From NCBI GenBank assembly GCA_035561235.1, contig DATMXZ010000186.1:1-19674 (forward strand): a DNA stretch of 19,674 nucleotides, given 5' to 3'. The first letter of the stretch is position 1; every line of letters begins with the position of its first letter. The notes below the pieces were generated by a model, which ran no database searches, had not been told where the DNA came from, and saw nothing but the letters and a program-made list of their open reading frames with translations. The translations under genes and the position numbers were made by a program. Of the stretch, positions 1-19,674 are shown one piece after another. This DNA comes from Ignavibacteria bacterium. Its GTDB lineage: Bacteria > Bacteroidota > Ignavibacteria > Tepidaquicellales > Tepidaquicellaceae.

Positions 1-1019
1 AACCTGTCCAATCCGCCCTGCAGCAGGTAAATATCTGTAAAGCCGAGTTTCACCGCGAGCACGGCGGCTTTTCCGGCGTTTTGTTCATCGTCCGCGATAA
101 AAATATTTTTCTTGTTTTTAAGCGACAGGAATTTGTCCGCATCTTTTTCAAAGAGATTTTCGAGAGTATAGTTTCTTGACTTAGGCAAACTCAAAGAGTC
201 GAAATCTTTTTTTAATCTGAAATCAAATATCTGTATGTTCTTGTCGTCGTCCATTATTCTGAACGCGAGTTCGTCGGGCGTCATAATCTTAACGTTTTCG
301 GTGCCTGTATATTCGCCGCTGTTAACCAAATCCAGCAGTTGTTGCTTTCGGTCGGGCAGAGCGAACATCAGGAGAGCGGCAATCACCGCAACTGCAGTCA
401 GTCCGTAATAAATCCTGACGGGTTTGAATTCGGAATTTAACGAGCCGTTAACTTTTTTCTCGATAAAAGTGGTTGCCCAGAACGCGCCGACCGCAACAAG
501 TACAAGCAGAAACGCGAACAGCGACTGAGACATTCCAAGCGACTCGAACACTCTTACATTTCCCCAGGATTCGCTTAAATACAATTTTTCAAACAATGGA
601 TATCCTTCGGCGAACAGCATCACGCCGAGGAAGGAGCCCGCCACAAATATCATAGCGTCAATTTTTCCAATAGCGGCGGCGCATACGCTCGTACCCGGGC
701 AGAACCCTCCGATAACGAATCCGAGCCCCATAATGAAACCGCCTGCAAGCGCCGACCACAGGAATGTCGGATTAATGTACACGAGGCTTATATCAAGCAA
801 ACCCCAGTGTCCGAGGGCAATCACACCTATCATAGCGGTAATTCCGGCGGTGAAAAACACTCTGAGAACCGTGAAGTCGTATCCGTAAAAAAGACCGACA
901 AGTTTTTTTGACGTTGAAAAACCCGCCTGCTCGAGTATAAAGCCGAACGCTATTCCTATGAAGAGAGCGACTATAAAATTTAATTCGTTTCCTATAACTT
1001 CAGGAACTAATGGTCCCAT
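1..1019 (-). CDS. YeeE/YedE-family (sulfur-transport) membrane protein fused to a C-terminal rhodanese-like domain; partial, the 3' end runs off the window (339 codons visible)
   Basis: Absent from the supplied ORF track because there is no stop inside the window. I translated the reverse strand codon by codon from the ATG at 1019..1017 and found no stop down to position 3. The product reads MGPLVPEVIGNELNFIVALFIGIAFGFILEQAGFSTSKK...GFVIGGFCPGTSVCAAAIGK...SLFAFLLVLVAVGAFW, with several hydrophobic helices and the GGFCPGTS glycine/cysteine motif typical of YeeE/YedE. A last TM helix (IYYGLTAVAVIAALLMF) follows, then VKIMTPDELAFRIMDDDKNIQIFDFR...NIFIADDEQNAGKAAVLAVKLGFTDIYLLQGGLDR, which has rhodanese-fold layout. 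An AGGAG lies 9 nt upstream of the ATG. Confidence 0.8.
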   Translation of the reverse strand, partial: MGPLVPEVIGNELNFIVALFIGIAFGFILEQAGFSTSKKLVGLFYGYDFTVLRVFFTAGITAMIGVIALGHWGLLDISLVYINPTFLWSALAGGFIMGLGFVIGGFCPGTSVCAAAIGKIDAMIFVAGSFLGVMLFAEGYPLFEKLYLSESWGNVRVFESLGMSQSLFAFLLVLVAVGAFWATTFIEKKVNGSLNSEFKPVRIYYGLTAVAVIAALLMFALPDRKQQLLDLVNSGEYTGTENVKIMTPDELAFRIMDDDKNIQIFDFRLKKDFDSLSLPKSRNYTLENLFEKDADKFLSLKNKKNIFIADDEQNAGKAAVLAVKLGFTDIYLLQGGLDR

Positions 1020-1043
1020 TTTAATAAACTCCTATGAATAATT

Positions 1044-1559
1044 TTAAATCCACAATTTTCTGAAAAAGTACGCGAACAAATAAGCGCCGCCGAAAATCGC
1101 TGCCATCGTTATTAATCCGCCCGTAGAGAGTACCGCCATGCCGGACAAAGCCGCTCCGCTTGTGCATCCCCTTCCGAGCTGCGCTCCGAATCCGAACAGG
1201 AATCCGCCGATAAGCGCGCCGGCGATTCTGATTTTCGCGGTGCTTTTCGGAGAATGCTCGAGTTTAAATTTAAGCCTGTTTGATATTAAGCCTGAAATAA
1301 ACGCGCCGATAACCACTCCAATCACTTCAAAAACCAGCCAGTTCTTAAGCGGATTTCCAGGATGCTCTTTAGAGTATTCCTGATAATACAACGCATTTGC
1401 GGTATAACCGGGAAGTATGCTTTCAACGGCCGCCGTATAAACGCTCTTAACGGCTCCGCTTGCACCGAGTCCCCTTCCTGTAATGTAGATAGTGGCGAGA
1501 AGAATCAGTCCGAGAAAGAATCCCGCCAGATAGGGATTCATGAATTTCTGTTCATTCAT
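1044..1559 (-). CDS. Half-size YeeE/YedE-family (sulfur/thiosulfate-transport type) membrane protein
   Basis: 171-aa ORF that is hydrophobic throughout. It carries two glycine-rich motifs, GRGLGASGA and GRGCTSGA, characteristic of YeeE/YedE (Sulf_transp/DUF395). A GAGGT Shine-Dalgarno sits 5 nt upstream. Its ATG overlaps the stop of the upstream cytochrome b gene by 8 nt (ATGAATGA). Confidence 0.85.
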   Translation of the reverse strand: MNEQKFMNPYLAGFFLGLILLATIYITGRGLGASGAVKSVYTAAVESILPGYTANALYYQEYSKEHPGNPLKNWLVFEVIGVVIGAFISGLISNRLKFKLEHSPKSTAKIRIAGALIGGFLFGFGAQLGRGCTSGAALSGMAVLSTGGLITMAAIFGGAYLFAYFFRKLWI

Positions 1560-2229
1560 AGATTACCTCTTTTTTGTCGTCTTTGTTTTGCTCATTTTTT
1601 ATTTCGCTGCCGTGCTGTTCGGATTCCTCAAGTTCCTCGAACCCTGTCAGCATTGCTTTTAAATTTGAAGTTACGGTTGTTCCGGTCGTAATGAGATACA
1701 GGTGAACAACGATAAAAGCCAGCAGCAGGAACGCGCCCGCGGTATGAAATACTGCAATCACGCCAACCGAATCAATGTTTAATCCTTCGATTGTTCCTTC
1801 CTGAGGATACCTGTAGAACATATACAATAAGCCCGAAACGACCATAACGGGTATTACGAGCAGTTTAAGTCCCAAATAGACGAGTTTCTGCAAGGGATTA
1901 AGTTTGCTTAAAACCGTTTTCTTTGTAGGATGCGGAGCGTTCTTAAAAATTCCAAAAAGATAATAATATATCTGCGCTTTAATATTCCCGAATGTCGGCA
2001 GATACTGTCTCCATTCTCCCGTGGCAAAATGCCAGAACACGGCGAATATTATAAGCACAATGAACGCATACGCGGCGATGTTGTGGTATCTCACCGCGTT
2101 TTGATATCCGAGAAAACTCAGCGTGCCGTGAATTTCAAAACCCGTGAACGCGAGAAAGAAAATCAAAATTGCCTGCATCCAGTGCCAGAATCTTTCGAAG
2201 GCTTTATAAATATACACTTTCTGTTTCAT
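1552..2229 (-). CDS. Membrane b-type cytochrome (FdnI / Ni-Fe hydrogenase cytochrome b family, PF01292-like), probable quinol-oxidising anchor
   Basis: 225-aa ORF with 4-5 TM helices. N-terminus is KAFERFWHWMQAILIFFLAFTGFEIHG. Candidate haem-ligand histidines are His16, His49/His67, and His162 plus His176, the last two 14 residues apart in the final helix. That spacing matches dihaem b subunits of formate dehydrogenase-N and hydrogenase. AGGAGA lies 5-6 nt upstream. The ATG overlaps the stop of the octahaem gene by 4 nt (ATGA). Confidence 0.8.
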   Translation of the reverse strand: MKQKVYIYKAFERFWHWMQAILIFFLAFTGFEIHGTLSFLGYQNAVRYHNIAAYAFIVLIIFAVFWHFATGEWRQYLPTFGNIKAQIYYYLFGIFKNAPHPTKKTVLSKLNPLQKLVYLGLKLLVIPVMVVSGLLYMFYRYPQEGTIEGLNIDSVGVIAVFHTAGAFLLLAFIVVHLYLITTGTTVTSNLKAMLTGFEELEESEQHGSEIKNEQNKDDKKEVIYE

Positions 2230-3800
2230 AATCTTCTCCTGTTTTTTCTTGAAGAAACGATTCTAACAATTCCGTGGGAAAGCACACCTGCGAAAGACAG
2301 AACCAGCAAGGCATAGCCGGCGGTTTCGACCGCATTATTTCTGTCTCTTGCGGGCATATAAAAATCGTTCAACCCCGCGAGTCTGCTTCCATTGTTCGTA
2401 TGGCATTCTACGCATTTGACTGAATTTTCTTTTGTCGAAACCATATGGTTGACAGGCCAGTACATTTCGGTCTGTATAAAGGAAAGATTTCCGCTGAACG
2501 GCAGACCAATTTCTTTCATTCCAACATCTAAAGCGCGCAGACAATCGAAGTCTTTCCAGAAAGCGCCTTCGCCTAATTTCGGGTCAAAAAGTTTTGGAAT
2601 CGCGAGCATTTTATATACCGGATCGAAACATTGTCTGGTTCGCATAAGTTTTACAGGAATAATTTTGGATTCCCTGTCGTTATATGATCCTTTCAACTGG
2701 TTAAGAACCAAAGGCACGGTGGTATCCTGTATAATATCCCCCTTTAAATAGTGGTCGGCCGTACCGTTAAACCAAATATATTCAGGTATGAGACTTCTCC
2801 CCCATTTAAAACTACCTTTTGTGGATAAATAAGTATGGTTTCCAAGGGAGTCATTTATTTCGTAAGGTTCACCGTCTTTAAGTTTGCCCGCTGTTGACCA
2901 ATCCCATTCTGTTTTAGTAGAATTTACTTTTGCATAAACAGGAATATGACAGGTCTGGCAGGCGACTTTCAGAGTATGTTTGTTCAGGATTCCGTCATCG
3001 TGCGGATTTTCCGTATGGCATTGTTCGCAGGTCGAGCGGTTTCTGTTCATCGAAGCCAAAGAATACATCTGGCCTTGTATGTTGTGCTTATCCGTTAAAT
3101 GGCAATCAACGCATACAAGATTACTTCCGTCGGTACCCATATGGACGTCAATATTTTTTGCGGGTTCAAACATTGCTTTTTCCAAATCGCCGTGTTTGAC
3201 GTTATTTCCGCCGCCGCCGTAGAAATGGCAAACCCCGCAATTCGAACGTTTTGGTCTTCCGACGTTTTGGGCGATATTAGAAAAGTCCAATGTCGGTTCC
3301 GGAGCCCCGCCTTTTTCCTGAGCCTTTGCATATGTTTCGGTATTATCGTGACAGACCAGGCAGTCAACATTTTGAGGGTCTTCAAAATCAAACGTTTTAG
3401 ACGATGTCATTCCATACCCGATATGGCATTTAGCGCAGGCAAGTTCATTGCCTTCGGCTCCCAGGCAAAAATTATTAATCGCGTTTTTTTTGCCGAGATA
3501 AACAATCCCCTTCCCTTCTATATAAGTCGGCTCCTCCCAGTTCCAGTGGTTAGACTTCATCACCTCCAGGTGTCTTTCCGTATGACAAGATATGCAGGCT
3601 TCCGTAACCTGCTGGGGCGATGAGAATTTTTTCTTAAGAACATCAAACTTTGCGTGCTTAACGGAGGCGGTTTTCTTTGCGGAATATTTTTCTTTCAGCA
3701 AAGAAAGGGTTGAAGATTCCGTTTTATTAGTCTGAAGCAGCGTAATAACGCCTGCTAAAGTAATCCCAATAACAAAAACGATTAAAAATATTTTTTTCAT
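2226..3800 (-). CDS. Octahaem c-type cytochrome, most similar in layout to the tetrathionate-reductase (Otr) family; N-terminal signal/anchor and C-terminal TM helix
   Basis: 524-aa ORF with exactly eight CXXCH motifs: CISCH, CAKCH, CLVCH, CGVCH, CVDCH, CEQCH, CQTCH, CVECH. It has a hydrophobic N-terminus (MKKIFLIVFVIGITLAGVITLL). The stretch CHFYGGGGNNVKHGD is one I recall as typical of Otr-type octahaem proteins, from memory and unverified. The C-terminus is hydrophobic with a basic tail (YALLVLSFAGVLSHGIVRIVSSRKNRRRL). The multihaem call is near certain; the family assignment is less so. Confidence 0.85.
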   Translation of the reverse strand: MKKIFLIVFVIGITLAGVITLLQTNKTESSTLSLLKEKYSAKKTASVKHAKFDVLKKKFSSPQQVTEACISCHTERHLEVMKSNHWNWEEPTYIEGKGIVYLGKKNAINNFCLGAEGNELACAKCHIGYGMTSSKTFDFEDPQNVDCLVCHDNTETYAKAQEKGGAPEPTLDFSNIAQNVGRPKRSNCGVCHFYGGGGNNVKHGDLEKAMFEPAKNIDVHMGTDGSNLVCVDCHLTDKHNIQGQMYSLASMNRNRSTCEQCHTENPHDDGILNKHTLKVACQTCHIPVYAKVNSTKTEWDWSTAGKLKDGEPYEINDSLGNHTYLSTKGSFKWGRSLIPEYIWFNGTADHYLKGDIIQDTTVPLVLNQLKGSYNDRESKIIPVKLMRTRQCFDPVYKMLAIPKLFDPKLGEGAFWKDFDCLRALDVGMKEIGLPFSGNLSFIQTEMYWPVNHMVSTKENSVKCVECHTNNGSRLAGLNDFYMPARDRNNAVETAGYALLVLSFAGVLSHGIVRIVSSRKNRRRL

Positions 3801-3870
3801 AAAGTTTTCTTATATCATTATTCTTATTAGTACTTGCTTGAATCGGGGCATTTTCACGAATAATTATTTA

Positions 3871-3898
3871 ATCTTAATATATCGGTTAATTTGTTCAA
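3871..3898 (-). promoter_or_regulatory. Candidate sigma70-like promoter P2 proximal to the octahaem operon (TTGAAC-16 nt-TAAGAT)
   Basis: On the minus strand, TTGAAC (3898..3893), a 16-nt spacer, then TAAGAT (3876..3871). This lies about 70 nt upstream of the ATG at 3800. It rests on a hexamer match only, in AT-rich DNA where such matches arise by chance. Confidence 0.25.
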
Positions 3899-3939
3899 TG
3901 TACTTTTCGGGTTATAAAATATACGATAAACCGATTTGA

Positions 3940-3968
3940 CCGCACGCAGCGCTTAAATGCGCGGCGCG
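3940..3968 (-). other. Isolated GC-rich imperfect hairpin inside an AT-rich spacer; possible terminator or RNA structure
   Basis: ccgcacgcagcgc / ttaaat / gcgcggcgcg. Pairing outward from the loop gives 4 bp, a mismatch, 3 bp, a mismatch, then 1 bp. There is no clean U-tract on either strand. It is the only GC-rich island between 3801 and 4130. Confidence 0.3.
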
Positions 3969-4031
3969 ATTGGGCAAAAACAAAATCTTCATTCCGATTA
4001 TAAAGGCAATGAGGCGTATTCACTAAAATTA

Positions 4032-4088
4032 TATGCTATTAGCATAAGTTGTTATAAGCAACTTATTTATAATTATTAGAAATGTCAA
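4032..4088 (-). promoter_or_regulatory. Candidate distal promoter P1 (TTGACA-17 nt-TAAGTT) overlapped by two adjacent inverted repeats (operator-like)
   Basis: On the minus strand, a consensus -35 TTGACA (4088..4083), a 17-nt spacer, then TAAGTT (4065..4060). Inverted repeat ataagttg-N7-caacttat (4044..4066, 8-bp perfect arms) covers the -10 and start region. A second inverted repeat tatgct-att-agcata (4032..4046) abuts it. Confidence 0.3.
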
Positions 4089-4266
4089 TAAACTTTTCCG
4101 TCATATACCGCCGCTTTGAGACGCTAAGCGGTAAACGGATTTACGCATCTGCTCCTGTCAACTATGAGCGGCATCCAGGGTCAGACCGTAATAAATATTC
4201 GTTAACCGGTTTGATTTCAAGCGGTGATTGTTTGCGATAAAATTACCATTCTTACCGCGCCGGAGT

Positions 4267-4593
4267 TTACGAATCCGGGGATTTCATAACTCCGAGGAGT
4301 TGAGACAGGGTATCATATTTGGACGGAATAATAACGGTTTGAATTCCGTGTTTGTCGAGAAGTTTTTTCACGGTGATTCCGTAATTGCCAGATATTACCG
4401 ACGTGACGCCGAGCGAAACCAAGAACGCCACCGCTTTTTTTCCGGAGTGCGCGGGCAGGTTATTTCCCGGGTTTAAGACAAAATCGATTTTTCCCGATAA
4501 ATCATCGAAGAGACAGAAGTATCTTGTTTTGCCGAAGCAGTCTTCTATCGGCGAACTCAGAGCATTTTCTTTTACAGTGATTGCTTTCATCAT
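4267..4593 (-). CDS. Small NifB/NifX-like (dinitrogenase Fe-Mo cofactor biosynthesis domain, Nitro_FeMo-Co fold) protein
   Basis: 108-aa ORF. It shows the N-terminal beta-strand plus FGxxxYF signature (KAITVKEN...CFGKTRYFCLFD) and a later ...GVTSVISGNYG...L...GIQ pattern. Both are typical of stand-alone NifX/MTH1175-like proteins. Its ATG overlaps the stop of the DUF134 gene by 4 nt. Confidence 0.7.
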   Translation of the reverse strand: MMKAITVKENALSSPIEDCFGKTRYFCLFDDLSGKIDFVLNPGNNLPAHSGKKAVAFLVSLGVTSVISGNYGITVKKLLDKHGIQTVIIPSKYDTLSQLLGVMKSPDS

Positions 4594-5003
4594 AAATTTT
4601 TTAACCTTGAACTTTCAAATCCCGGATTTTTGCAAAGCGGACAAGACGGGCTGCCTGTTTTTTTCGAGGTATTATAGATGCACTCGCAAACAGAGCATTT
4701 ATACCAGTTATCCCCGTAATAAATATTTTCTCCGGAAATTTTCATTGCTTTCTTTTCAACAAGCGCCGTAGCCAGTTTGCCCCTTGCGCGTTTGTATATT
4801 CTTGTAAAAGTCGGTCTCGAGATACGCATTAATTTGGCCGCCTTAGTCTGGTCGAGCCCTTCGTAATCAATAAGTTTAATCGATTCATACTCCTCGGCAA
4901 GGAACAAGATGCTATCTTCTTCCGAAACGTTTTTATCCGATGAGAAAAAACCTGTTTCCGGAAACGGAGATAATATTTTTCTTTGCTTAATAGGTCTCGC
5001 CAC
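4590..5003 (-). CDS. DUF134/UPF0251 family putative DNA-binding protein with a C-terminal Cys4 zinc-ribbon extension
   Basis: 137-aa ORF with a GTG start. The N-terminus MARPIKQRKI, then LFLAEEYESIKLIDYEGLDQTKAAKLMRISRPTFTRIYKRARGKLATALVEKKAMKI, matches the DUF134 pattern (RPxKxR..., sigma-70 region-4-like HTH). The C-terminal extension is WYKCSVCECIYNTSKKTGSPSCPLCKN (CxxC...CxxC). It starts 6 nt after the Mrp stop. Confidence 0.8.
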   Translation of the reverse strand: MARPIKQRKILSPFPETGFFSSDKNVSEEDSILFLAEEYESIKLIDYEGLDQTKAAKLMRISRPTFTRIYKRARGKLATALVEKKAMKISGENIYYGDNWYKCSVCECIYNTSKKTGSPSCPLCKNPGFESSRLKNL

Positions 5004-5009
5004 GATTAT

Positions 5010-5843
5010 TTATATTAGTATATCGTTGTTATCTCCGTACAACAATTTTATTTTTCCGGCAATTCCCGCAAAAGCCGTTGTCACGCCGTTAAGCGGTTTT
5101 TCAACGACTATCGGCTCTCCGCTGTCTCCTGAAACACGGGCTTGAATATCGATTGGAATTGAGCCCAGAAAATGCACATTGTTTTCATCCGCAAGTTTTC
5201 TACCCCCTCCAAATCCGAAAATATCCAGTTCGGCGCTGCAATGAGGACATACGAAGCCCGACATATTTTCAACAACACCGATACGCGGGATACCGAGTTC
5301 TTTTGCCATGTTGATCGCTCTTTCAGCGTCAATAACGGACACCTCTTGCGGAGTCGTTACGATTACGGCAAAATCAGGTTTCATTTCCTGCGAAATTGTA
5401 AGTATTTCGTCTCCTGTTCCGGGAGGAAGATCGGCTATAAGATAATCGAGCATTCCCCATTCCACATCCGCGAGAAACTGATTAATGATTTTGGAACGAA
5501 CAGGTCCGCGCCATATCAAGGGCTGTCCTTTTTTCAAGATGCTTGCCATTGAAATCATTTTGACCCCGTGCTTTTCGAAAGGAATTATCTTCTCATCGAG
5601 ATAAATAAGGTCGCCATAAACGTTCATCATTTTTGAAACGTTGGGACCCGTTATGTCGGCGTCGAGAATTCCCGCCGAGAAGCCTCCCGACTTCAGCGTG
5701 AAAGCAAGATTGATACTTACGGTTGTTTTGCCGACGCCTCCTTTTCCGCTGAAGACCGCTATTCGGTGTTTTATTCCCGAAACTGTTTCTTTAATTCTCC
5801 TCTGTTCTTCTTCAAACGATTTAGTATTTTCTTTTGTGTTCAT
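5010..5843 (-). CDS. apbC: Mrp/NBP35/ApbC-family P-loop ATPase (Fe-S cluster carrier)
   Basis: 277-aa ORF with a deviant Walker A (AVFSGKGGVGKTTVSINLA), the DADITGPN and DYLIADLPPGTGD motifs, and the conserved cluster-bridging CPHC (GFVCPHCSAELDIFG). Confidence 0.9.
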   Translation of the reverse strand: MNTKENTKSFEEEQRRIKETVSGIKHRIAVFSGKGGVGKTTVSINLAFTLKSGGFSAGILDADITGPNVSKMMNVYGDLIYLDEKIIPFEKHGVKMISMASILKKGQPLIWRGPVRSKIINQFLADVEWGMLDYLIADLPPGTGDEILTISQEMKPDFAVIVTTPQEVSVIDAERAINMAKELGIPRIGVVENMSGFVCPHCSAELDIFGFGGGRKLADENNVHFLGSIPIDIQARVSGDSGEPIVVEKPLNGVTTAFAGIAGKIKLLYGDNNDILI

Positions 5844-5874
5844 TTATTAGATGTTTTTAACGCCATTGGCTTAA

Positions 5875-6420
5875 CTACGGAAGCAAAACAGCGGCCGCTA
5901 TGACCGTAGTCCACAATCCGTTCTTATCTCCAAGGGCAGTCTGTGTAATATTAAAGGACCTCACGATTTTTCCGGACATTTTAAATGCCTGTTCTCTTTC
6001 GAGCCAGTCCGTTTCGGGATTAAACTCAACGTTTAACGTCGTGGCGAGCATTTGGGCGGCTAAATCCTCCGCATAATCTCCGCAGTTTTTTTCTTTAACG
6101 CCGTACGGGTGATATTCCGACAGGTATCCGTATTGCGATTCGTCCGCCGGAATCGCGACACCTATTGATGACGCAATGAGTCTGTTCGGTTCGTTCGTAA
6201 AATTCCTCGCCATAACAGAAAAGGTGATTCCGCCCTGCGACAGTTCTCCGAGACCCTCGTTCCTCGTTATTATCCTGCAGCCGGGCGGAAATACGCTGCT
6301 CACCATTACGAGGTTGCAAATTTCAATCCCCGCGTCGCGAAGCGCCGCCTCAAAAGAAGCCAGATAGTATTTATGCCGCCCGACCCCTTTGGTAAAAAAT
6401 ATTTTTTTAGGTACGAACAA
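5875..6420 (-). CDS. pdaD: Pyruvoyl-dependent arginine decarboxylase
   Basis: 181-aa ORF with a TTG start. The sequence [46 protein letters not shown] carries the VSS self-cleavage (pyruvoyl-forming) motif at Ser41-Ser42. Length and N-terminus match PvlArgDC proteins. Confidence 0.9.
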
Positions 6421-6522
6421 ATTCGTTGCCGTTCACGGTTGCCGGGACATCAAGCCTCACACGAATAAGGTCCGGGCTTGCCATCCCGATAAATTCCATT
6501 TGATTTTAAAAATTTTTTAACT

Positions 6523-6554
6523 AATTTGTAATGAACATATGTTCATTACAAATT
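6523..6554. promoter_or_regulatory. Perfect 32-bp palindrome (operator-like) in the divergent pdaD / cysteine-synthase-like promoter region
   Basis: aatttgtaatgaacat|atgttcattacaaatt. I checked all 16 base pairs by hand and all are complementary. The core GAACATATGTTC lies at 6533..6544. A possible promoter overlaps it: TGAACA, 17 nt, then TATAAA (6556..6561), reading toward the ATG at 6615. Confidence 0.6.
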
Positions 6555-6614
6555 TATAAAGAAAAACACACGAAGTCAAGAGAGAAAACTTTTTTAAACT
6601 AAAGAACCACGCGA

Positions 6615-7580
6615 ATGTATTACCGCAATATTCTTGAACTGATAGGAAATACCCCGCTAGTCAGGATTAACAACATGACAAGGGGAATAAAGGCGACAGT
6701 GCTGGCGAAGATCGAATTCTGCAATCCGGGGGGAAGCGTAAAAGACAGAGTAGGACGGGCAATGATAGAAGACGCCGAGAAAAAGGGTTTATTGAAAAAA
6801 GGATCGACAATTGTCGAGGCGACCAGCGGAAACACGGGAATCGGTCTGGCTCTTGCGGGCAGGGTCAAAGGTTACAGAGTTATTCTTGTGATGACGGATA
6901 AGATAGGTCAGGAAAAGCGCAACTATTTAAAAGCGCTCGGAGCGGAGGTGGTTATAGTGCCGAAGGAAGCGACACCCGATTCGCCCGATTATTACAGGAA
7001 CAAGGCAAAATCTCTTTCGGAAGAGATACCGGGCGCTATTAATCTGAATCAATACGCCAATGAATCGAATCCCGGCAGCCATTATAACACCACGGGCGCG
7101 GAAATCTGGAAAGACACTGAAGGGAAAATCACACACTTCGTGTGCGGCGTAGGTACAGCGGGCACAATTACAGGCGTATCTAAATACCTGAAAGAAAAGA
7201 ATCCTGACATTAAGGTGATAGGGGCTGACCCCGCGGGTTCAAATTTTAAAATATTCAAGGACACGGGAAAAATAGGCGAGGTTAAGATGCATCAAATCGA
7301 GGGATTAGGAACCGACATAATTCCCCCGATAACAGATTTTCAATACGTTGATGAAATAATAAGCGTAAACGATAAGGACTCAATCGATACTTGCCGCAGG
7401 CTTGCAAAAGAAGAGGGAATTTTCGCGGGCGCTTCTTCGGGAACGGGAGCGTTTCTTGCCTTAAAGACCGCTGAGAAACTCGACGATAACGGGCTTGTTG
7501 TTTTCCTTGTCTGCGATACGGGTGAAAGATATCTCTCTAAATACCACAACGAAAAGTGGCTGAAGGAAAACAATTTTTGA
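6615..7580 (+). CDS. PLP-dependent cysteine synthase / cystathionine beta-synthase-like enzyme (fold type II, no CBS domains)
   Basis: 321-aa ORF. Motifs present: IGNTPLVRIN, the PLP-lysine motif NPGGSVKDRVG, ATSGNTGIGLA, and GVGTAGTITGV. The length is that of CysK/CysM/MccA. I cannot separate O-acetylserine sulfhydrylase from CBS by eye. Confidence 0.9.
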   Translation: MYYRNILELIGNTPLVRINNMTRGIKATVLAKIEFCNPGGSVKDRVGRAMIEDAEKKGLLKKGSTIVEATSGNTGIGLALAGRVKGYRVILVMTDKIGQEKRNYLKALGAEVVIVPKEATPDSPDYYRNKAKSLSEEIPGAINLNQYANESNPGSHYNTTGAEIWKDTEGKITHFVCGVGTAGTITGVSKYLKEKNPDIKVIGADPAGSNFKIFKDTGKIGEVKMHQIEGLGTDIIPPITDFQYVDEIISVNDKDSIDTCRRLAKEEGIFAGASSGTGAFLALKTAEKLDDNGLVVFLVCDTGERYLSKYHNEKWLKENNF

Positions 7581-7618
7581 AACTGACACACACAAAGAAT
7601 TTAAAACAAACAAGAAAG

Positions 7619-8803
7619 ATGGACACAAAAAATCTGGGATTTAATTCAAAACTTATACACGCGGGCGGGTATAAAGACAAGCAAGGAAGTGTAAACGTTC
7701 CGATATTTCAATCATCAACATTTCAGTTTGAAAGCGCGGAGGAAGGAGCGAGATGTTTTAACGGTGAAAGCGACGGGTACATTTACACGCGGCTCGGAAA
7801 TCCGACAATAAACGTTCTCGAAAAAATCATTGCCGAACTCGAGAAGGGATACGGCGCAATCGGAACCGGTTCCGGTATGGGAGCGGTGAACACGGTATAT
7901 ATGGGTTTACTGAAGAAGGGTGATCACATAATAAGTTCGGACGCTGTTTACGGACCATCGCGGGTTGTGCTGGAAGAAAAGTATTCGGAGTTTGGAATAG
8001 AGTCGTCATTCGTCAAAACTTCAGATTCCGAGAATATCAAGAAGGCAATAAAGCCTAACACAAAAGTATTGTATCTGGAGACACCCGCGAATCCAACAAT
8101 TGAGATAAGCGATCTTAAGAAATGCTCTGAAATTGCAAAGGAAAACAAACTTACGATGGTTGTTGACAACACTTTCTCAAGCCCATATCTGCAAAGGCCC
8201 ATAGAATTCGGGGCGGACGTGGTTATACATTCATTGACAAAGTTTATAAACGGTCACGCCGACATAGTAGGCGGCATTGTTGTAGCAAAAGACGAACAGA
8301 TGTACAAAAAACTCAGGTCAACAATGATTAATCTGGGCTGCAACATGGATCCTCATCAGGCGTTTCTCGTAATAAGGGGTTTAAAAACGCTCGGACTGCG
8401 AATCGACAGGGCGCAGGAAAACGCGATGAAGATAGCGGAATATCTCGAAGGGCATCCGAAAATCGAATGGATAAAATATCCGGGATTAAAGTCCCATCCG
8501 CAGCACGAACTTGCAAAAAAGCAGATGAACGGATTCGGCTCAATGATTAGTTTCGGATTAAAAGGCGGTTTCGAAGCGGGAAAGACAATAATGAACAACG
8601 TTAAGATGGCAATGCTTGCAGTATCGCTCGGCGGTGTTGAGTCTTTAATTGAACATCCGGCATCGATGACGCATTCTAAAGTGTCGCAGGCAGATAAAAT
8701 CAAGGCGGGGATTACAGACGGTCTTGTCAGATATTCCGTGGGAATCGAAGATGTTGACGATTTGATATCCGATCTCCGGCAGGCTCTTGATAAAATCAAA
8801 TAA
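7619..8803 (+). CDS. Cys/Met-metabolism PLP enzyme (methionine gamma-lyase / cystathionine gamma-lyase family)
   Basis: The ORF track begins at GTG 7556, inside the upstream gene. I prefer ATG 7619 (MDTKNLGFNSKLIHAGG...) because homologues start near the xxIHAG motif. Motifs present: SSTFQFESAEEGARCFNGE..GYIYTRLGNPT, the PLP-lysine HSLTKFINGHADIVGG, and LAVSLGGVESLIEHPASMTH. Confidence 0.88.
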   Translation: MDTKNLGFNSKLIHAGGYKDKQGSVNVPIFQSSTFQFESAEEGARCFNGESDGYIYTRLGNPTINVLEKIIAELEKGYGAIGTGSGMGAVNTVYMGLLKKGDHIISSDAVYGPSRVVLEEKYSEFGIESSFVKTSDSENIKKAIKPNTKVLYLETPANPTIEISDLKKCSEIAKENKLTMVVDNTFSSPYLQRPIEFGADVVIHSLTKFINGHADIVGGIVVAKDEQMYKKLRSTMINLGCNMDPHQAFLVIRGLKTLGLRIDRAQENAMKIAEYLEGHPKIEWIKYPGLKSHPQHELAKKQMNGFGSMISFGLKGGFEAGKTIMNNVKMAMLAVSLGGVESLIEHPASMTHSKVSQADKIKAGITDGLVRYSVGIEDVDDLISDLRQALDKIK

Positions 8804-8839
8804 AATAAAATTATTAAATTACAGTCGAAAGGACTTTAT

Positions 8840-9253
8840 ATGAAAGTAGCAATTCCAACAATCTCGGGTAACGTTGATGACCATTTTGGTCACTGTGAAT
8901 ATTTTCAGGTATTCACAACAAACGACAACAAAGAAATCATTCACGAGGAATTAATTTCGTCGCCGAACGGCTGCGGATGCAAATCCAACATCGTTGAAAA
9001 ACTTTCGAGCATAGGCGTAAAAGTCATGCTGGCGGGAAATATCGGCGGCGGTGCAATAAACAAATTAAACGAGAACGGCATAGCGGTTGTCAGGGGTTGT
9101 TCCGGCAACGTAAAGAACGTTTTGAACGACTGGCTGAGCGGAAAAATAAAAGACAGCGGTGAATCCTGCAAGGAGCACGAGCATCATCACGGCGAAGGAC
9201 ACGGCCACGGGCACGAAGGCCGGGATTGCCACGAGCACGGACATAAACACTGA
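8840..9253 (+). CDS. NifB/NifX-like (Nitro_FeMo-Co fold) small protein with a His-rich C-terminal tail
   Basis: 137-aa ORF. MKVAIPTISGNVDDHFGHCEYFQVF...IGVKVMLAGNIGGGAINKLNENGIAVV matches the stand-alone NifX/MTH1175-like pattern. The C-terminus is CKEHEHHHGEGHGHGHEGRDCHEHGHKH. AAAGGA lies 6 nt upstream, and the gene starts 36 nt after the gamma-lyase stop. Confidence 0.75.
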   Translation: MKVAIPTISGNVDDHFGHCEYFQVFTTNDNKEIIHEELISSPNGCGCKSNIVEKLSSIGVKVMLAGNIGGGAINKLNENGIAVVRGCSGNVKNVLNDWLSGKIKDSGESCKEHEHHHGEGHGHGHEGRDCHEHGHKH

Positions 9254-9382
9254 CACGGCATAATCAATTAGTACATCCGAAAATTTCTTAGAAATGTTTT
9301 AAGCGTAAATCTTTAGGCCTGATGTTAGTAATTCCAAAAACAACAGGCACGAAGAGTCGCGTCAGAGAATTCAAATTTTATT

Positions 9383-10009
9383 ATGAGTGAAAAACTGAAG
9401 CACTGGTATGACGGCCGGTTCTACGACAAATTTATAGCCCCGAATCAGGATGAGGCATTCAGGATAGTACGGGAGTTGATACCTGCCGGCTCGACTGTTC
9501 TGGATGCGGGCTGCGGGACGGGGAGACTTTGCTTTCAGTTAAGCGGTAAATGCGCCAACATCGACGGCATTGATCCGTCGGACAAGAACATAATTACGGC
9601 TAATGCGAAACTTGACCGGTCTTTGAATTCAAATATCAGATTTCACCATAACGACATCAAAACGTTCCTCGTGTCAACCGGAAGCAAATACAATTTCGCC
9701 GTGATTTCATACGTCATTCACGAGGTAACAGAAAATAAGCGGGAAGAAATTTTGAAACTTCTCTCGGCGCACGCGGACAAAATAATCGTGATAGATTATC
9801 TTACTCCGCATCCCAGAACATTTACGGGAATCGTTAACAGGGTTGTCGAGTTTCTTGCCGGAAGAAATCATTACAATAATTTCATGTCGTATTTACGCGC
9901 AGGCGGATTAAAGGGGCTGTCGGAAAAGACGGGATTAAGCATCACAAAGGAAATACGGAATTTCCCAAGAACATCGCACATTATGGTATTATCAAAAATC
10001 AACGATTAG
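9383..10009 (+). CDS. Class I SAM-dependent methyltransferase (substrate unknown)
   Basis: 208-aa ORF with motif I VLDAGCGTGRL, the acidic post-I residue in IDGIDPS, and a later FAVISYVIHEV block. Confidence 0.8.
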   Translation: MSEKLKHWYDGRFYDKFIAPNQDEAFRIVRELIPAGSTVLDAGCGTGRLCFQLSGKCANIDGIDPSDKNIITANAKLDRSLNSNIRFHHNDIKTFLVSTGSKYNFAVISYVIHEVTENKREEILKLLSAHADKIIVIDYLTPHPRTFTGIVNRVVEFLAGRNHYNNFMSYLRAGGLKGLSEKTGLSITKEIRNFPRTSHIMVLSKIND

Positions 10010-10072
10010 CAGACTATAAAATCCGTGTAATTTTTCTTTTCAATATTATTTATTAAAATCAAATTATTATTT

Positions 10073-10780
10073 ATGGAACAGAATCAAGCAATCCCCATGC
10101 CGAGAATAGGCGACAAGGCGCCCGAATTCAAGGCGGTTACAACACAGGGGGACATAAATTTCCCCGCCGATTACAAGGGAAACTGGGTAATTTTATTCAG
10201 CCATCCGGCCGATTTCACTCCGGTATGCACATCAGAATTCATGACTTTTGCAACCTTAGAAGACAAGTTCGCAAGCGCGAACTGTAAACTTGTAGGACTA
10301 TCGGTTGACGGGCTTTACAGCCACATTGCCTGGTTAAGAACGATAAGAGAGAAGATTGAATACAAGGGCATGAAGGATGTTGAAGTGCGGTTTCCTTTAA
10401 TCGAGGATATCACGATGGAAGTCGCGAAGAAATACGGAATGATACAGCCCGGTGAAAGCAACACAAAAGCAGTACGGGCAGTGTTCTTCATAGACCCGAA
10501 AGGAATCATCAGGGCGATTATATATTATCCTTTAAGCCTTGGCCGTAATTTCGACGAACTTTACCGCGCGCTAATCGCAATGCAGACCGCGGATAATTTT
10601 TCCATTGCAACGCCTGCAGACTGGCAGCCGGGTGACGATGTGATAGTTCCCACCGCGGGTTCCTGCGGTGTTGCGAAAGACAGAATGGAAGGCAAAGAAA
10701 AATTAAAATGTTACGACTGGTTTTTCTGTACAAAGGAACTGGACAAAGAATCGGTAATAAAAGCGGTGACGAAAAAATAA
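10073..10780 (+). CDS. Peroxiredoxin, Prx6/archaeal-type (1-Cys-like fold with C-terminal Cys pair)
   Basis: 235-aa ORF. The peroxidatic site is FSHPADFTPVCTSEF, followed by LSVDGLYSHIAWL. The C-terminal KCYDWFFC resembles the CxDWWFC motif of archaeal thioredoxin peroxidases such as the Aeropyrum enzyme. Confidence 0.9.
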   Translation: MEQNQAIPMPRIGDKAPEFKAVTTQGDINFPADYKGNWVILFSHPADFTPVCTSEFMTFATLEDKFASANCKLVGLSVDGLYSHIAWLRTIREKIEYKGMKDVEVRFPLIEDITMEVAKKYGMIQPGESNTKAVRAVFFIDPKGIIRAIIYYPLSLGRNFDELYRALIAMQTADNFSIATPADWQPGDDVIVPTAGSCGVAKDRMEGKEKLKCYDWFFCTKELDKESVIKAVTKK

Positions 10781-10830
10781 TTCTCCGCTATTCTGCGTGC
10801 GCGGTCTCAGGCGCACATAAGTCCGGCAAC

Positions 10831-10868
10831 AAAAAAGCCCGGCAGTAAAAAAATACTGCCGGGTTTTA
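10831..10868. terminator. Bidirectional rho-independent terminator between the convergent peroxiredoxin and LVIVD-lipoprotein genes
   Basis: A perfect 10-bp stem, cccggcagta (10838..10847) pairing with tactgccggg (10854..10863), with an aaaaaa loop. It is flanked by aaaaaag on the left and ttttat on the right, so a U-tract follows the hairpin on both strands. A second 6-bp GC hairpin, gtgcgc-N8-gcgcac, lies at 10797..10816. Confidence 0.85.
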
Positions 10869-10887
10869 TATATTCGTTGAAACGCAA

Positions 10888-11898
10888 TCAAGGATATCGG
10901 AGAATTATTAATTTTGTTTTATCGGACACGAACAAGTGACCGTCGTACTGCGTAATCCCTACGGCGTTGCCCTGCGTGCTGTAGCCCGCGAGGAGCCTCG
11001 CATTGGACGGATTAGAAATGTCGAAAGTCTCGACTCCGCGGTTGTTTTCCGCGGAATAGACATAATTACCGTAAGCGGCGACCGCGAAAGCGGGTCCCAG
11101 AGTGCTCAGAAAGCCGAGTTGAACAGGGCTCGAAGGATTTGTAACGTCAAGCACGAGAACTCCGTTTACATCGTTTGCAATCAGGGCAATATTGCCGCTG
11201 AATTTAATATCGTAAGCGTAATGGTCGTTCAGCCCCTGTGATAATCTTGAAGGTGACTGCGGATTCGAGACATCAACGATGTCAATCCCCTGGTCCTGAA
11301 CAAGATACGCGGTATTGTTCTTTACCTGTATTTCGTTTATCACGCTGAACGTCTGATAAGTTGTTAATCGGGAAACGTGCGGCAGCGAAGATAAATCGTA
11401 AACATACATCACCTTGCCGCTTCCGCCCGCGTACAGGACCTTGCTGACGGTATCCGCAAAAACGGAATTTATGTCATCGCCCTGAAGCGCAAGAAGCGTA
11501 TCAAGAATCGCGGAGTTTACGTCGGACACGTCTATCACGCTCACGCCGCCAGTACCCGAAGCGGTAAACACTCTTGTTCCGCCGCCGATATAGCAGGCAT
11601 AGGTTTCTTTTACGTATCCCGTAACGTTATAACCCACAATTGGAACGGGCTGTGATTTCTGAGTCACGTCAAAAATCTGAAGACCGTCATTACCTCCTGA
11701 AAGAAAAAGATAATCGGTCGAGCCTGTTTTTTTAACGAATGAATGAAGGTATGTTCCCTGACCGCTGTACTCCCCTACAAATACCATATTTTCTTCTTCA
11801 TACGAAACCGTGTTATCGGATTCGCACCCGTATAAAAAAGCAAAAATAATCGGTAAGAGAACAACCGCCGTCCTGAAAATAATATTATGTTTTTTCAT
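10888..11898 (-). CDS. LVIVD-repeat beta-propeller lipoprotein
   Basis: 336-aa ORF with a signal peptide and lipobox (LLPIIFAFLYGC). It has about six repeats of the LxIxDVSNPxxP type: LQIFDVTQKSQP, VSVIDVSDVNSA, MYVYDLSSLPHV, IDIVDVSNPQSP, VLVLDVTNPSSP, VETFDISNPSNA. Confidence 0.75.
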   Translation of the reverse strand: MKKHNIIFRTAVVLLPIIFAFLYGCESDNTVSYEEENMVFVGEYSGQGTYLHSFVKKTGSTDYLFLSGGNDGLQIFDVTQKSQPVPIVGYNVTGYVKETYACYIGGGTRVFTASGTGGVSVIDVSDVNSAILDTLLALQGDDINSVFADTVSKVLYAGGSGKVMYVYDLSSLPHVSRLTTYQTFSVINEIQVKNNTAYLVQDQGIDIVDVSNPQSPSRLSQGLNDHYAYDIKFSGNIALIANDVNGVLVLDVTNPSSPVQLGFLSTLGPAFAVAAYGNYVYSAENNRGVETFDISNPSNARLLAGYSTQGNAVGITQYDGHLFVSDKTKLIILRYP

Positions 11899-11993
11899 AT
11901 TTCAAAGATATCTTTAATTTTATACTATGAAAACGTAAAAACGTTCCCGGCCTGTGTTCCGACGGGAGCGGCTGACGGGAAAAACGTTCTATT

Positions 11994-12989
11994 TTAAAGG
12001 CGTTTTATGCAAGCGACTTCCCTCCCGTTTTCCTTTACCTCGAGCGGGGGAACGGTTTTCAGGCATTCGTCCGACGCTTCGGGACACCTGCCCGCGAAGA
12101 CGCATCCCTGCGGCCTTGTTAGTGTCGAAGGAATATCGCCTGAGAGTAAAATTCTTTCGCGCTTATTTTCTGAAAAAGCGGGTACGGGGACCGAAGAAAT
12201 CAAGGCTTTCGTGTACGGGTGTCCGGGGTTTGAAAATACCTTTCCGCATTTTCCGCGCTCCAAAATTTTTCCGAGATACATCACGGCAACATCGGTGCAG
12301 AGATTCTCAATCACGGACAAATCGTGAGAGACGAACAGGAGTGTGAGATTAAGTTCATTTTTTAATTTTCTGAACAGGTTTATGATTTGCGCCTGAACCG
12401 ACACGTCAAGCGACGACAGCGGCTCATCGGCAATCAGAATTTTCGGTCCCGCGGCGAGCGCCCGTGCGATGCCAGCCCGCTGTTTCTGACCTCCCGACAA
12501 TTCGTGCGGAAATCTGTAATAAATTTCTTCACCCAGTCCCGTCAATTCAAGCAGGTCTATAACTTTATTTTTTCTTTCGGACTTTCCGAGGGAAGTAAGA
12601 TGCTTCAACGGCTCCTGAATAATCTCTCCGATGTTGAAGCGCGGATTAAGCGAACCCGACGGGTCCTGAAAAATAAACTGGACATAACTTCTCAACTTTG
12701 CTCTTTCTTCACGGTTAAGGCGCGCGTAATCGTAAACTTCTCCGTTGACTTTCAGAACAATGTTTCCAGATATTCTCACTCCCGGATTATTGAACTTCAG
12801 AAGATTGCCAGCCGCTCTTGCGATTGTGCTTTTTCCGCTTCCGGATTCTCCCGCGAGCCCGAGCGAACAGCCTTCTTCAAGTTCCAGGCTGAAATCATCC
12901 GCGGCAGTTATGCTACCGCGCGAGAATATTCCGCTTCGTCCCGAAGGATATGAAACGTAGAGCCGGTTTATTTCAAGAATGTTACTCAT
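11994..12989 (-). CDS. Peptide ABC transporter ATP-binding protein (OppF/DppF type; equivalent to the second half of YejF)
   Basis: 331-aa ORF with Walker A GESGSGKST, signature LSGGQKQR, Walker B LIADEPLSSLD, and the C-terminal oligopeptide-ABC extension (HPYTKALISSVP). Its ATG overlaps the upstream stop by 8 nt, with GAGGTG upstream. Confidence 0.9.
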   Translation of the reverse strand: MSNILEINRLYVSYPSGRSGIFSRGSITAADDFSLELEEGCSLGLAGESGSGKSTIARAAGNLLKFNNPGVRISGNIVLKVNGEVYDYARLNREERAKLRSYVQFIFQDPSGSLNPRFNIGEIIQEPLKHLTSLGKSERKNKVIDLLELTGLGEEIYYRFPHELSGGQKQRAGIARALAAGPKILIADEPLSSLDVSVQAQIINLFRKLKNELNLTLLFVSHDLSVIENLCTDVAVMYLGKILERGKCGKVFSNPGHPYTKALISSVPVPAFSENKRERILLSGDIPSTLTRPQGCVFAGRCPEASDECLKTVPPLEVKENGREVACIKRL

Positions 12990-15014: not shown

Positions 15015-15015
15015 T

Positions 15016-16056: not shown

Positions 16057-16086
16057 AGCAAATCCGTTTTCATATTCTCAAACTTC

Positions 16087-17991: not shown

Positions 17992-18088
17992 AAGGATTAA
18001 ATTATGTTGCAATAAAATATTATAAATATTTAATAATATCCATTCTATTTAATCATAATCCCGTATGGAACCGCTACACAGAATAAAG

Positions 18089-18119
18089 AAAAAAAAACGG
18101 AGCGGAAATCCGCCCCGTT
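18089..18119 (-). terminator. Rho-independent terminator of the 502-aa orphan gene
   Basis: On the minus strand, aacggggcgg-attt-ccgctccgtt (9 bp plus one A/C mismatch), followed directly by a run of about 9 U (A-run 18089..18097 on the plus strand). It lies 22 nt after the stop at 18142. Confidence 0.8.
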
Positions 18120-18141
18120 CATATTAAGAAGAAATACTTCT

Positions 18142-19650: not shown

Positions 19651-19674
19651 GGCGGTTTTGTTAATTAAAATGTA

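Follow-up and report, generated by a model that had tools for sequence, protein, structure and literature searches.

What does an octahaem cytochrome c do when it is encoded in one operon with a membrane cytochrome b and a sulfur-transporter homologue split into two pieces? This question is raised by a 19,674-nucleotide (nt) stretch of DNA from an Ignavibacteria bacterium (GenBank assembly GCA_035561235.1, contig DATMXZ010000186.1, positions 1 to 19,674 of the forward strand), the whole of which is referred to here as the window. The following four genes at its left end are in question.

2226-3800, minus strand: otr, an open reading frame (ORF) of 524 amino acids (aa) encoding an octahaem cytochrome c of the Otr family
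1552-2229, minus strand: cytochrome b gene, 225 aa, PF01292
1044-1559, minus strand: yeeA, 171 aa, homologue of the C-terminal half of YeeE
1-1019, minus strand: yeeB, starting with the ATG at 1019, with 339 of its 398 codons in the window and the remainder off the left edge

The answer favoured here, on a modest balance of probability, is that these genes encode a menaquinol-driven reductase of periplasmic sulfur compounds that is coupled to a sulfur-uptake channel.

The four genes are tightly packed. The otr and cytochrome b genes overlap by 4 nt (2226-2229), the cytochrome b gene and yeeA overlap by 8 nt (ATGAATGA, 1552-1559), and yeeA and yeeB are separated by 24 nt (1020-1043). The ribosome-binding sites are AGGAG, 7 nt ahead of the cytochrome b ATG, GAGGT for yeeA, and AGGAG for yeeB, and the base composition is even over the operon region. 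This arrangement had been claimed in a preliminary description of the same DNA, and the ORFs and the sequence as read agreed with it. The gene identities proposed there were likewise matched in profile searches, with TIGR04315 for the octahaem cytochrome, PF01292 for the cytochrome b, PF04143 for both YeeA and YeeB, and PF00581 for a rhodanese-like domain of YeeB. As yeeB is cut by the left edge, its C-terminal Gly-Gly-Cys (GGC) lies outside the window, and for this reason it was missed by the preliminary description; the full length of 398 aa was taken from the orthologue in locus L002, which is 98-99% identical.

The same gene set was observed far outside this genome. A scan of one genome per species with the window Otr returned 388 relatives, and the gene order was read in the best 80 of them (60-98% identity). 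The order otr, cytochrome b, yeeA, yeeB was found in 80/80 of these loci wherever the contig was long enough. Linkage confined to the window genome had been named beforehand as an outcome that would speak against the proposal, and the neighbourhood survey showed the opposite. Nearly all of the 80 loci are in metagenome-assembled genomes of the Ignavibacteria/Melioribacteraceae, with some labelled as Caldithrix, Armatimonadota/HR16, or others. Altogether, the module was found in >100 genomes and metagenome contigs.

More distant relatives of YeeB were obtained from a search of 1.84 billion cluster representatives, which gave 243 relatives at E <1e-30, and from scanning metagenomes with a diverse alignment of YeeB sequences; the top 120 word-indexed matches comprised close relatives only. 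At 49% identity to the window YeeB, a relative in locus L089 is accompanied by the same four genes. At 30-35% identity, two relatives are encoded together with Otr, a heptahaem cytochrome, cytochrome b, and YeeA. The metagenome scan returned 80 loci of this second, sister clade (YeeB ~30-35% identical to that of the window), and the order Otr, heptahaem cytochrome, cytochrome b, YeeA, YeeB was present in all 36 of the second-clade loci that had at least 4.3 kb of upstream sequence. The operon arrangement is conserved far beyond chance. The otr genes of Shewanella and Marinobacter have a monohaem cytochrome c and a DUF3373 protein as neighbours, and the otr gene of Malonomonas has no adjoining cytochrome b or YeeE gene. 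The linkage is therefore limited to particular Otr clades and does not extend to the whole family.

The octahaem protein is placed firmly within the Otr family. It scored 564.1 bits on TIGR04315 (cut-off 375), whereas the runner-up, the DmsE decahaem model, gave 41 bits, far under its own cut-off. PF11783 was matched with E = 7.9e-61, and the alignment with the Otr of S. oneidensis (SO_4144; structure 1SP3) extends over residues 53-474 with E = 3e-121. Eight CXXCH motifs are present, at residues 69, 122, 147, 188, 230, 258, 281, and 463. An identity as HAO, NrfA, or an MccA-type enzyme was rejected because TIGR04315 alone passes its cut-off; none of the nitrogen-cycle octahaem and pentahaem models came near its own threshold for this protein. 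The profile search thus agreed with the preliminary assignment to Otr. Two further features of the protein were mapped.

3489-3491, minus strand: Lys104 codon of otr, aligned with Lys56 of 1SP3 (G103-K104 opposite G55-K56)
2256-2321, minus strand: hydrophobic segment forming the C-terminal transmembrane (TM) anchor helix of Otr, at about residues 494-515

Lys56 of the S. oneidensis enzyme lies within the motif GKKNxINNFC and is the proximal lysine ligand of catalytic haem 2, a role reportedly described by Mowat et al. in the 1SP3 paper of 2004. Lys104 and the Cys of this motif are invariant in the 80 orthologues of the window Otr, and Lys104, which aligns with Lys56, would be its counterpart as a ligand.

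In addition to an N-terminal signal or anchor helix, the window Otr carries an extra TM anchor at its C terminus. Within this anchor, His509 and Arg513 (H-x-x-x-R; HGIVR) are invariant in the 80 orthologues, and the helix is followed by a basic tail, RKNRRRL. The eight CXXCH motifs, PF11783, and GKKNxINNFC are common to the window Otr and that of S. oneidensis. In contrast, the Shewanella-type Otr (~460 aa) has no C-terminal anchor and is ~60 aa shorter. The S. oneidensis enzyme, a soluble protein, receives its electrons through CymA and STC (PMC4484225), whereas the window Otr has a cytochrome b and the YeeA/YeeB (YeeAB) channel in its own operon, partners that the Shewanella-type otr genes do not have.

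For the cytochrome b, the PF01292 score was 96.2 bits (cut-off 30.1). Its best NCBIfam match was PhsC (NF011582) at 106.8 bits against a cut-off of 204, and it scored below the PhsC, HyaC, and FdnI equivalog cut-offs; it is related to PhsC but is not a PhsC orthologue. His16, His34, His49, His67, and His100 are invariant, and His162 and His176 are present in 78/79 orthologues; four of these seven would ligate the two haems b. The protein is thus a candidate for a quinol-oxidising membrane subunit of the FdnI/HyaC/PhsC type.

The FdnH/FdnI and HyaA/HyaC pairs offer an analogous architecture, in which a periplasmic redox subunit is tethered beside cytochrome b. The PF01292 fold and the conserved histidines are common to the window protein and the Fdn, Hya, and Phs systems, and a periplasmic subunit held next to cytochrome b by a single C-terminal TM tether is common to the window pair and FdnI/FdnH and HyaC/HyaA. 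In the Fdn, Hya, and Phs systems, however, the partner is an iron-sulfur (FeS) subunit, whereas here it is a multihaem cytochrome c whose anchor, in contrast to those systems, contains the invariant His and Arg.

The second clade provides the most direct link between the two kinds of cytochrome. There, Otr comprises only 483-491 aa and lacks the C-terminal helix, and it is the heptahaem cytochrome that bears a C-terminal TM helix with H-x-x-x-R (HGILR, HGGLR). This heptahaem cytochrome is fused in frame to cytochrome b in 40/48 second-clade loci (drawn from L092-L171), and the motif lies at the junction in 40/40, so that, unlike in the Fdn, Hya, and Phs systems, a single polypeptide contains both cytochrome b and the cytochrome c with the anchor. 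For example, L098 4667-7414 encodes a 915-aa protein, 5' of YeeA/YeeB, in which a secreted heptahaem cytochrome c is followed by the TM anchor and a PF01292 cytochrome b. By the Rosetta-stone argument, the in-frame fusion is evidence for a single complex of cytochrome b with the cytochrome c that bears the anchor. The predicted topology agrees with the fusion, since the anchor helix runs from outside to inside and cytochrome b begins inside. Taken at the level of sequence, these features support an electron path that would lead from quinol via cytochrome b to the c-type haems. The earlier proposal of a tethered periplasmic octahaem enzyme fed by cytochrome b gained support from both the TM anchor and the second-clade fusion.

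Part of this arrangement has been reported before. Kadnikov et al. (2020) described a cluster of "Otr and cytochrome b561" in Ignavibacteriae Ch128a and proposed that its electrons come from the quinone pool (PMC7509429). This cluster corresponds to locus L007 of the present analysis. The Ch128a paper does not mention the YeeE genes, retains nitrite as a possible substrate, and reports NrfAH in the same genome (PMC7509429). The preliminary view that the four-gene combination was uncharacterised therefore stood in part: the pairing of Otr with cytochrome b561 was already in print, whereas the link to YeeE and the cysteine arm were not found in the open-access papers and preprints searched.

The two remaining genes specify the channel. 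YeeA matches positions 175-310 of the PF04143 (Sulf_transp) profile and YeeB matches positions 4-193, which supports the two-piece YeeE of the preliminary description. YeeA has four TM helices, with both termini predicted inside, and its loops GRGLGASG and GRGCTSG resemble loop LC, including its Arg, and loop LD, respectively. It aligns to residues 237-325 of the YeeE of Spirochaeta thermophila (StYeeE), with YeeA Cys132 opposite the Cys of an StYeeE GGC motif; the alignment identifies this StYeeE residue as, presumably, Cys293, the outer essential cysteine. Similarly, Cys107 of YeeB (GGFCPGT) aligns to the GGC cysteine of an StYeeE fragment, and this residue is identified as the probable Cys91. 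YeeA Cys132 and YeeB Cys107 are both invariant among orthologues. In StYeeE, Cys91 and Cys293 are essential and Cys22 is dispensable (PMC7449682), and no equivalent of Cys22 is conserved among the YeeB orthologues.

The closest two-piece precedent is PmpA/PmpB of Serratia, which are encoded by adjacent genes, correspond to YeeE halves with one conserved Cys each, are proposed to form a heterodimer, and belong to the zero-valent sulfur transporters (Li et al. 2024, PMC11582611). The window channel has the same two-piece design with one invariant channel Cys per half, and YeeA fits it closely. PmpA and PmpB are ~130 aa each and have no extra domains, whereas YeeB, at 398 aa, extends its PmpB-like core of four TM helices by two further ones, followed by the rhodanese-fold domain, a long helix, and a basic tail. 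A linkage to a respiratory reductase is undescribed for PmpAB.

With YeeE/TsuA (Spirochaeta thermophila, E. coli; PDB 6LEO), the window pair has in common the Sulf_transp family, the loop motifs, the two essential cysteines, and the loop-C Arg. TsuA, in contrast, is a single polypeptide of ~330-350 aa with nine TM helices, whereas the window channel is made of pieces of 171 and 398 aa, and YeeB has two TM helices, the rhodanese-fold domain, and the Cys tail over and above TsuA. On the TsuA/YeeE models NF041049 and NF052577, the scores were 51.9 bits against a cut-off of 400 and 29.5 against 645, respectively, and no TsuB/YeeD (TusA-like) gene was seen in the operon or among the recurrent neighbours at the 80 loci. 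Three features rule out TsuA orthology for the window channel: scores far under the cut-offs, the division into two pieces, and the lack of a TsuB partner. A role in selenium metabolism (YedE/FdhT) was considered and rejected, with scores of 28-43 bits against cut-offs of 200-350.

The YeeAB pair was also found in other sulfur contexts. In locus L086 (756-6524), genes for a PhsA-like molybdoenzyme and for FeS and NrfD-type subunits are followed by YeeA/YeeB, and the YeeB ends with REGC; the molybdoenzyme scored 527 bits on the PhsA model, which is below the cut-off. This arrangement indicates that the channel module also serves another class of periplasmic sulfur reductase. In loci L084 and L087, YeeAB pairs lie beside periplasmic rhodaneses with signal peptides, in L091 the neighbour is a secreted PDO-rhodanese protein, and ArsR-type regulators adjoin some YeeAB loci. 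The Phs-like, rhodanese, and ArsR neighbours tie the YeeAB pair to sulfur.

These contexts bear on the possibility that Otr and cytochrome b form a quinol:nitrite or quinol:hydroxylamine reductase for detoxification or ammonification, to which YeeAB would be only loosely related or unrelated. The Ch128a authors kept nitrite as a possible substrate, as mentioned above, but the same genome already has NrfAH (PMC7509429). In addition, the strict co-linearity with a sulfur-family channel over two clades that have diverged to ~30% identity, and the presence of the same channel pair elsewhere beside PhsA-like reductases and periplasmic rhodaneses, argue against a nitrogen-oxide function, which is considered very unlikely here.

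The C-terminal part of YeeB requires separate consideration, since it distinguishes this protein from both PmpB and TsuA. Two segments lie in the window.

3-290, minus strand: in-window part of the YeeB rhodanese-fold domain, residues ~244-339, with the loop IFIADDEQNAG and no Cys
354-524, minus strand: YeeB TM5 (residues 166-186) and TM6 (residues 203-222), assigned by hydropathy, with a loop rich in Lys and Arg (K/R) between them

The domain scored 36.5 bits on PF00581 (Rhodanese; cut-off 22.2). In the AlphaFold2 (AF2) model of YeeB, it was predicted with a pLDDT (predicted local distance difference test) of 85-91, and its Foldseek matches were single-domain rhodaneses at probability 1.0; Foldseek with this model returned rhodanese folds only and no YeeE. 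No Cys is conserved in the domain among 71 orthologues. Among 103 distant representatives, to 30% identity, 91 have no Cys in the active-site-loop region and ~4 have the canonical Cys. The active site was mapped from the Pfam domain, from column conservation, and from the alignment with the periplasmic rhodanese-like protein Sud of Wolinella (1QXN), the best, though weak, sequence match among solved structures, in which Ala310 of YeeB is opposite the catalytic Cys89; BLASTP of the YeeB region against E. coli GlpE gave no usable alignment. Whereas Sud keeps the catalytic Cys, the YeeB domain has lost it, and the YeeB domain is therefore not a classical rhodanese or a sulfur "receiver", the role that the preliminary description had given it.

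A different cysteine is conserved instead. Cys107 of the channel and the final residue are the only invariant cysteines of YeeB, and the protein ends with K-R-x-x-G-G-C-COOH in 71/73 orthologues. Among the best 150 of the 243 distant representatives, 114 end with GGC, GGCG, GGCGG, GGCS, EGC, or RGC, and in the sister clade the tail is GGCG in 68 loci and GGCGG in three. The last 12 residues follow a confidently predicted long helix and are themselves predicted to be disordered (pLDDT <50). The invariant C-terminal Gly-Gly-Cys is thus a candidate sulfur carrier. The GGCG and GGCGG ends recall the C-terminal GGCGG arm of SoxY, whose Cys also lies on a flexible Gly-Gly motif, and the YeeB tail is predicted to be periplasmic; this is a likeness of a short motif only: YeeB, unlike SoxY, has no SoxY fold and no SoxZ, and neither SoxY nor SoxZ domains were found by Pfam or NCBIfam in the operon proteins. 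Sulfur bound to SoxYZ has been proposed to be handed to the YeeE-like SoxT (PMC11582611).

The side of the membrane on which this module lies was predicted from the topology. In 71 orthologues, the mean Kyte-Doolittle hydropathy is 2.19 for TM5 and 1.86 for TM6, and the intervening loop (residues 187-202) contains on average 3.8 K/R; the AF2 model has helices at residues 165-191 and 201-220. Over YeeB, the K/R count is ~6.8 for the segments predicted to be inside and 1.8 for those predicted to be outside. In StYeeE, the N terminus is outside, the N-terminal half (H1-H6) forms four TM helices that end outside, and H7 reverses the topology (PMC7449682). Six TM helices, the N-out start by homology with StYeeE, and the positive-inside rule together suggest that the rhodanese-tail module of YeeB probably resides in the periplasm. 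Independent support for a periplasmic module comes from locus L091 (3202-5211), in which a lactamase_B (PDO-like)-rhodanese protein with a signal peptide is encoded beside YeeAB and ends with the YeeB-like tail KTKRRSAGC.

These results disagree with a cytoplasmic receiver, the arrangement originally envisaged, in which thiosulfate produced by Otr would enter through the split YeeE and its sulfur would pass to a rhodanese-like domain in the cytoplasm. The gene content and the conserved linkage fit such a scheme, as does a singleton YeeB-like protein, P0493 (JGI sample 3300042731, 3.7-kb contig), in which an ArsR helix-turn-helix domain lies behind the rhodanese-like domain; if real, this fusion would require a cytoplasmic location. 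The YeeB domain, however, is without a catalytic Cys; the six TM helices with their N-out start and K/R bias place it outside the cytoplasm; and the protein of L091 combines the same type of tail with a signal peptide. Moreover, the P0493 fusion occurs on a single 3.7-kb contig, and its Arg-rich linker resembles an out-of-frame read-through into a neighbouring arsR gene. P0493 represents one of two things, a membrane-tethered regulator that senses sulfur or read-through caused by a frameshift. A cytoplasmic receiver is accordingly regarded as distinctly unlikely.

The favoured reading of a menaquinol-driven periplasmic sulfur reductase with an uptake channel can be set out in five steps. Cytochrome b, as in other members of its family, would oxidise menaquinol. 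The electrons would pass to Otr, which by its architecture is held at cytochrome b by its own C-terminal TM helix. Otr, through its lysine-ligated haem, would then reduce a periplasmic compound with an S-S bond; the best guess for this substrate, from the family name and the in vitro activity, is tetrathionate, which would be reduced to thiosulfate. YeeA and YeeB, in antiparallel orientation, would form a PmpAB-type two-piece channel that takes up the product, with YeeA Cys132 as the outer and YeeB Cys107 as the inner channel cysteine. Finally, the degenerate rhodanese domain, the helix, and the Gly-Gly-Cys tail of YeeB may act near the reductase as a SoxY- or Sud-like arm that captures sulfur and hands it over to the channel. 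Tetrathionate as the substrate and thiosulfate as the cargo are thus what we infer.

The reverse reaction, oxidation of thiosulfate to tetrathionate with quinone as the acceptor, was rejected on thermodynamic grounds, with the tetrathionate/thiosulfate couple at ~+200 mV and menaquinone at ~-75 mV.

Several points weigh against this reading and temper its details. The scheme for this clade is drawn from genes and sequences, the cargo and the direction of transport of YeeAB are taken from homology, and the periplasmic location of the YeeB domain is a prediction. The P0493 fusion, if taken at face value, points to the cytoplasm, and the operon encodes no cytoplasmic acceptor of the TsuB, YeeD, or TusA-like kind. 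The AF2 model of YeeB alone has a membrane core of low confidence (pLDDT <50 at residues 1-153), probably because the partner half is missing from the model. As for the enzyme, Otr proteins efficiently reduce nitrite and hydroxylamine in vitro, and Shewanella Otr is discussed within nitrogen metabolism (PMC4484225). In Caldithrix abyssi, which has an Otr gene, growth tests gave no support for the sulfur or tetrathionate respiration predicted from the genome (PMC5317091), a result that calls for caution in over-reading the name of the Otr family.

The conserved arm raises a further possibility, in which the substrate is bound to a carrier. Otr would reductively cleave a sulfur adduct (such as Cys-S-S-SO3- or Cys-Sn-) carried by the GGC arm that YeeB provides, and the sulfane sulfur left over would be relayed from Cys to Cys through the channel, a reductive mirror of SoxYZ chemistry. 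The invariance of the C-terminal Cys tail, the SoxY-like GGCG/GGCGG ends in the sister clade, where they are always linked to Otr, and the predicted flexibility (pLDDT <50 over the last 12 residues) and periplasmic location of the tail are consistent with this proposal. Thiols react spontaneously with tetrathionate to give S-thiosulfonates, which also speaks for it. The physiological substrate of Otr enzymes is described as unclear (PMC7509429, PMC4484225), which leaves room for a tethered one. On the other hand, this scheme is put together by inference, Shewanella Otr acts on free tetrathionate without such a partner, and the occurrence of the YeeAB-tail module with non-Otr enzymes indicates that the arm may serve the channel and not the reductase. 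A carrier-bound substrate is judged unlikely, although it agrees with all that was observed. The particular order in which sulfur, once Otr has acted on it in its tethered form, would cross the membrane, from Cys398 of the arm to YeeA Cys132 and then to YeeB Cys107, is a doubtful proposal of similar standing.

The regulation of the operon bears on the direction of transport. Flanking genes vary across the genome loci, except for the upstream regulator: a same-strand regulator lies directly 5' of the operon in 53/70 loci, of the MarR type in 27 and of a Cys-rich MerR type in 26 (for example, L001 5472-5906 and L006 5507-5977), and the MerR type has a cysteine-rich C-terminal extension. In the window, neither a MarR- nor a MerR-type regulator is present directly 5' of the operon. 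The recurrent regulator could indicate a stress response, and for PmpAB-type channels it is not settled which way the cargo moves (PMC11582611), both of which would be compatible with export, that is, with YeeAB moving cytoplasmic sulfane sulfur or thiosulfate out while the arm holds it and Otr reduces it to a harmless product. The characterised relatives TsuA, SoxT, and the PmpAB-like zero-valent sulfur transporters, however, are importers (PMC11582611, PMC7449682), and respiration is the more usual setting for a periplasmic reductase that consumes quinol. Export for detoxification is thus considered highly improbable.

In the window, a long spacer precedes otr.

3801-4266, minus strand: intergenic spacer 5' of otr, 466 nt, AT-rich

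This spacer presumably holds the promoter and operator of the operon. A sigma-70-like site lies from 4055 to 4028, in a consensus scan in which the number of sites was not above chance. A perfect 7+1+7 palindrome, TATGCTA-A-TAGCATA on the minus strand, was read by eye at 4032-4046 and shares bases with the -10 hexamer of the highest-ranking sigma-70-like site. The palindrome may be an operator, or it may have arisen by chance given the AT-rich sequence. Promoter and terminator scans gave results not above shuffled expectation, with no notable internal terminator, and the Rfam search of the window matched no family.

Beyond the spacer, the remainder of the window contains the following features.

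4267-4593, minus strand: NifX/NifB-like protein (PF02579), directly 5' of the otr spacer
4590-5003, minus strand: DUF134 putative DNA-binding protein with a Cys-rich tail
5010-5843, minus strand: Mrp/NBP35 iron-sulfur-cluster ATPase
5875-6420, minus strand: pyruvoyl arginine decarboxylase
6615-7580, plus strand: cysteine-synthase-like PALP enzyme
7556-8803, plus strand: pyridoxal-phosphate enzyme of Cys/Met metabolism (O-acetylhomoserine sulfhydrylase or cystathionine-type)
8840-9253, plus strand: second NifX-like protein
further along the window: methyltransferase, 1-Cys peroxiredoxin, and LVIVD-repeat protein
11994-18012: Opp-type ATP-binding cassette transporter
18142-19650, minus strand: 502-aa ORF with no Pfam match at E <= 1e-5, adjoining the Opp-type genes

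L007 has a comparable NifX-like/DUF134 set on the opposite strand, downstream of its operon. The three plus-strand genes at 6615-9253, oriented oppositely to otr and ~2.8 kb away from it, include sulfur-assimilation genes. The closely related locus L002 carries a second CysK-like gene past the operon's other end, and sulfur-assimilation neighbours were not seen in the flanks read of the more distant loci L001, L006, and L007.

The separate parts of the operon are all of known kinds, namely the Otr family, a PF01292 cytochrome b, a PmpAB-type YeeE, and a rhodanese fold. No published account of YeeE together with an octahaem cytochrome, or of YeeE with a rhodanese domain and a SoxY-like arm, was found among open-access papers and preprints. 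Relative to the literature found, three points are new: the conserved association of an Otr-cytochrome b reductase with a two-piece YeeE channel, the H-x-x-x-R anchor helix together with its fused forms, and a large family of YeeE half-proteins that carry a dead rhodanese domain and a terminal Cys arm.

Otr-family cytochromes are common in the genomes of anaerobes and are routinely annotated as tetrathionate reductases, whereas it is uncertain what they reduce in the cell and what donates their electrons, and the Shewanella enzyme is viewed mainly as a nitrite/hydroxylamine reductase. The present analysis provides Otr with a dedicated partner on the quinol side, and the donor question becomes answerable because, in the sister clade, cytochrome b forms one chain with the cytochrome c that bears the anchor. 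Among the comparative arguments to date that Otr has a sulfur role in these clades, the conserved tie to a sulfur-family channel over divergent lineages is the strongest. The YeeB-like family (243 representatives at E <1e-30) is apparently undescribed, and its members also occur beside Phs/Psr-like reductases and secreted sulfurtransferases. Taken as a whole, the observations suggest a general route by which periplasmic sulfur is handed to a membrane channel. If the tethered-sulfur chemistry considered above were true, the system would be a reductive, carrier-based counterpart of Sox and could explain the elusive substrate of Otr. These findings are relevant to how metabolism is annotated for the Ignavibacteria and for their relatives in sediments, aquifers, and sludge.

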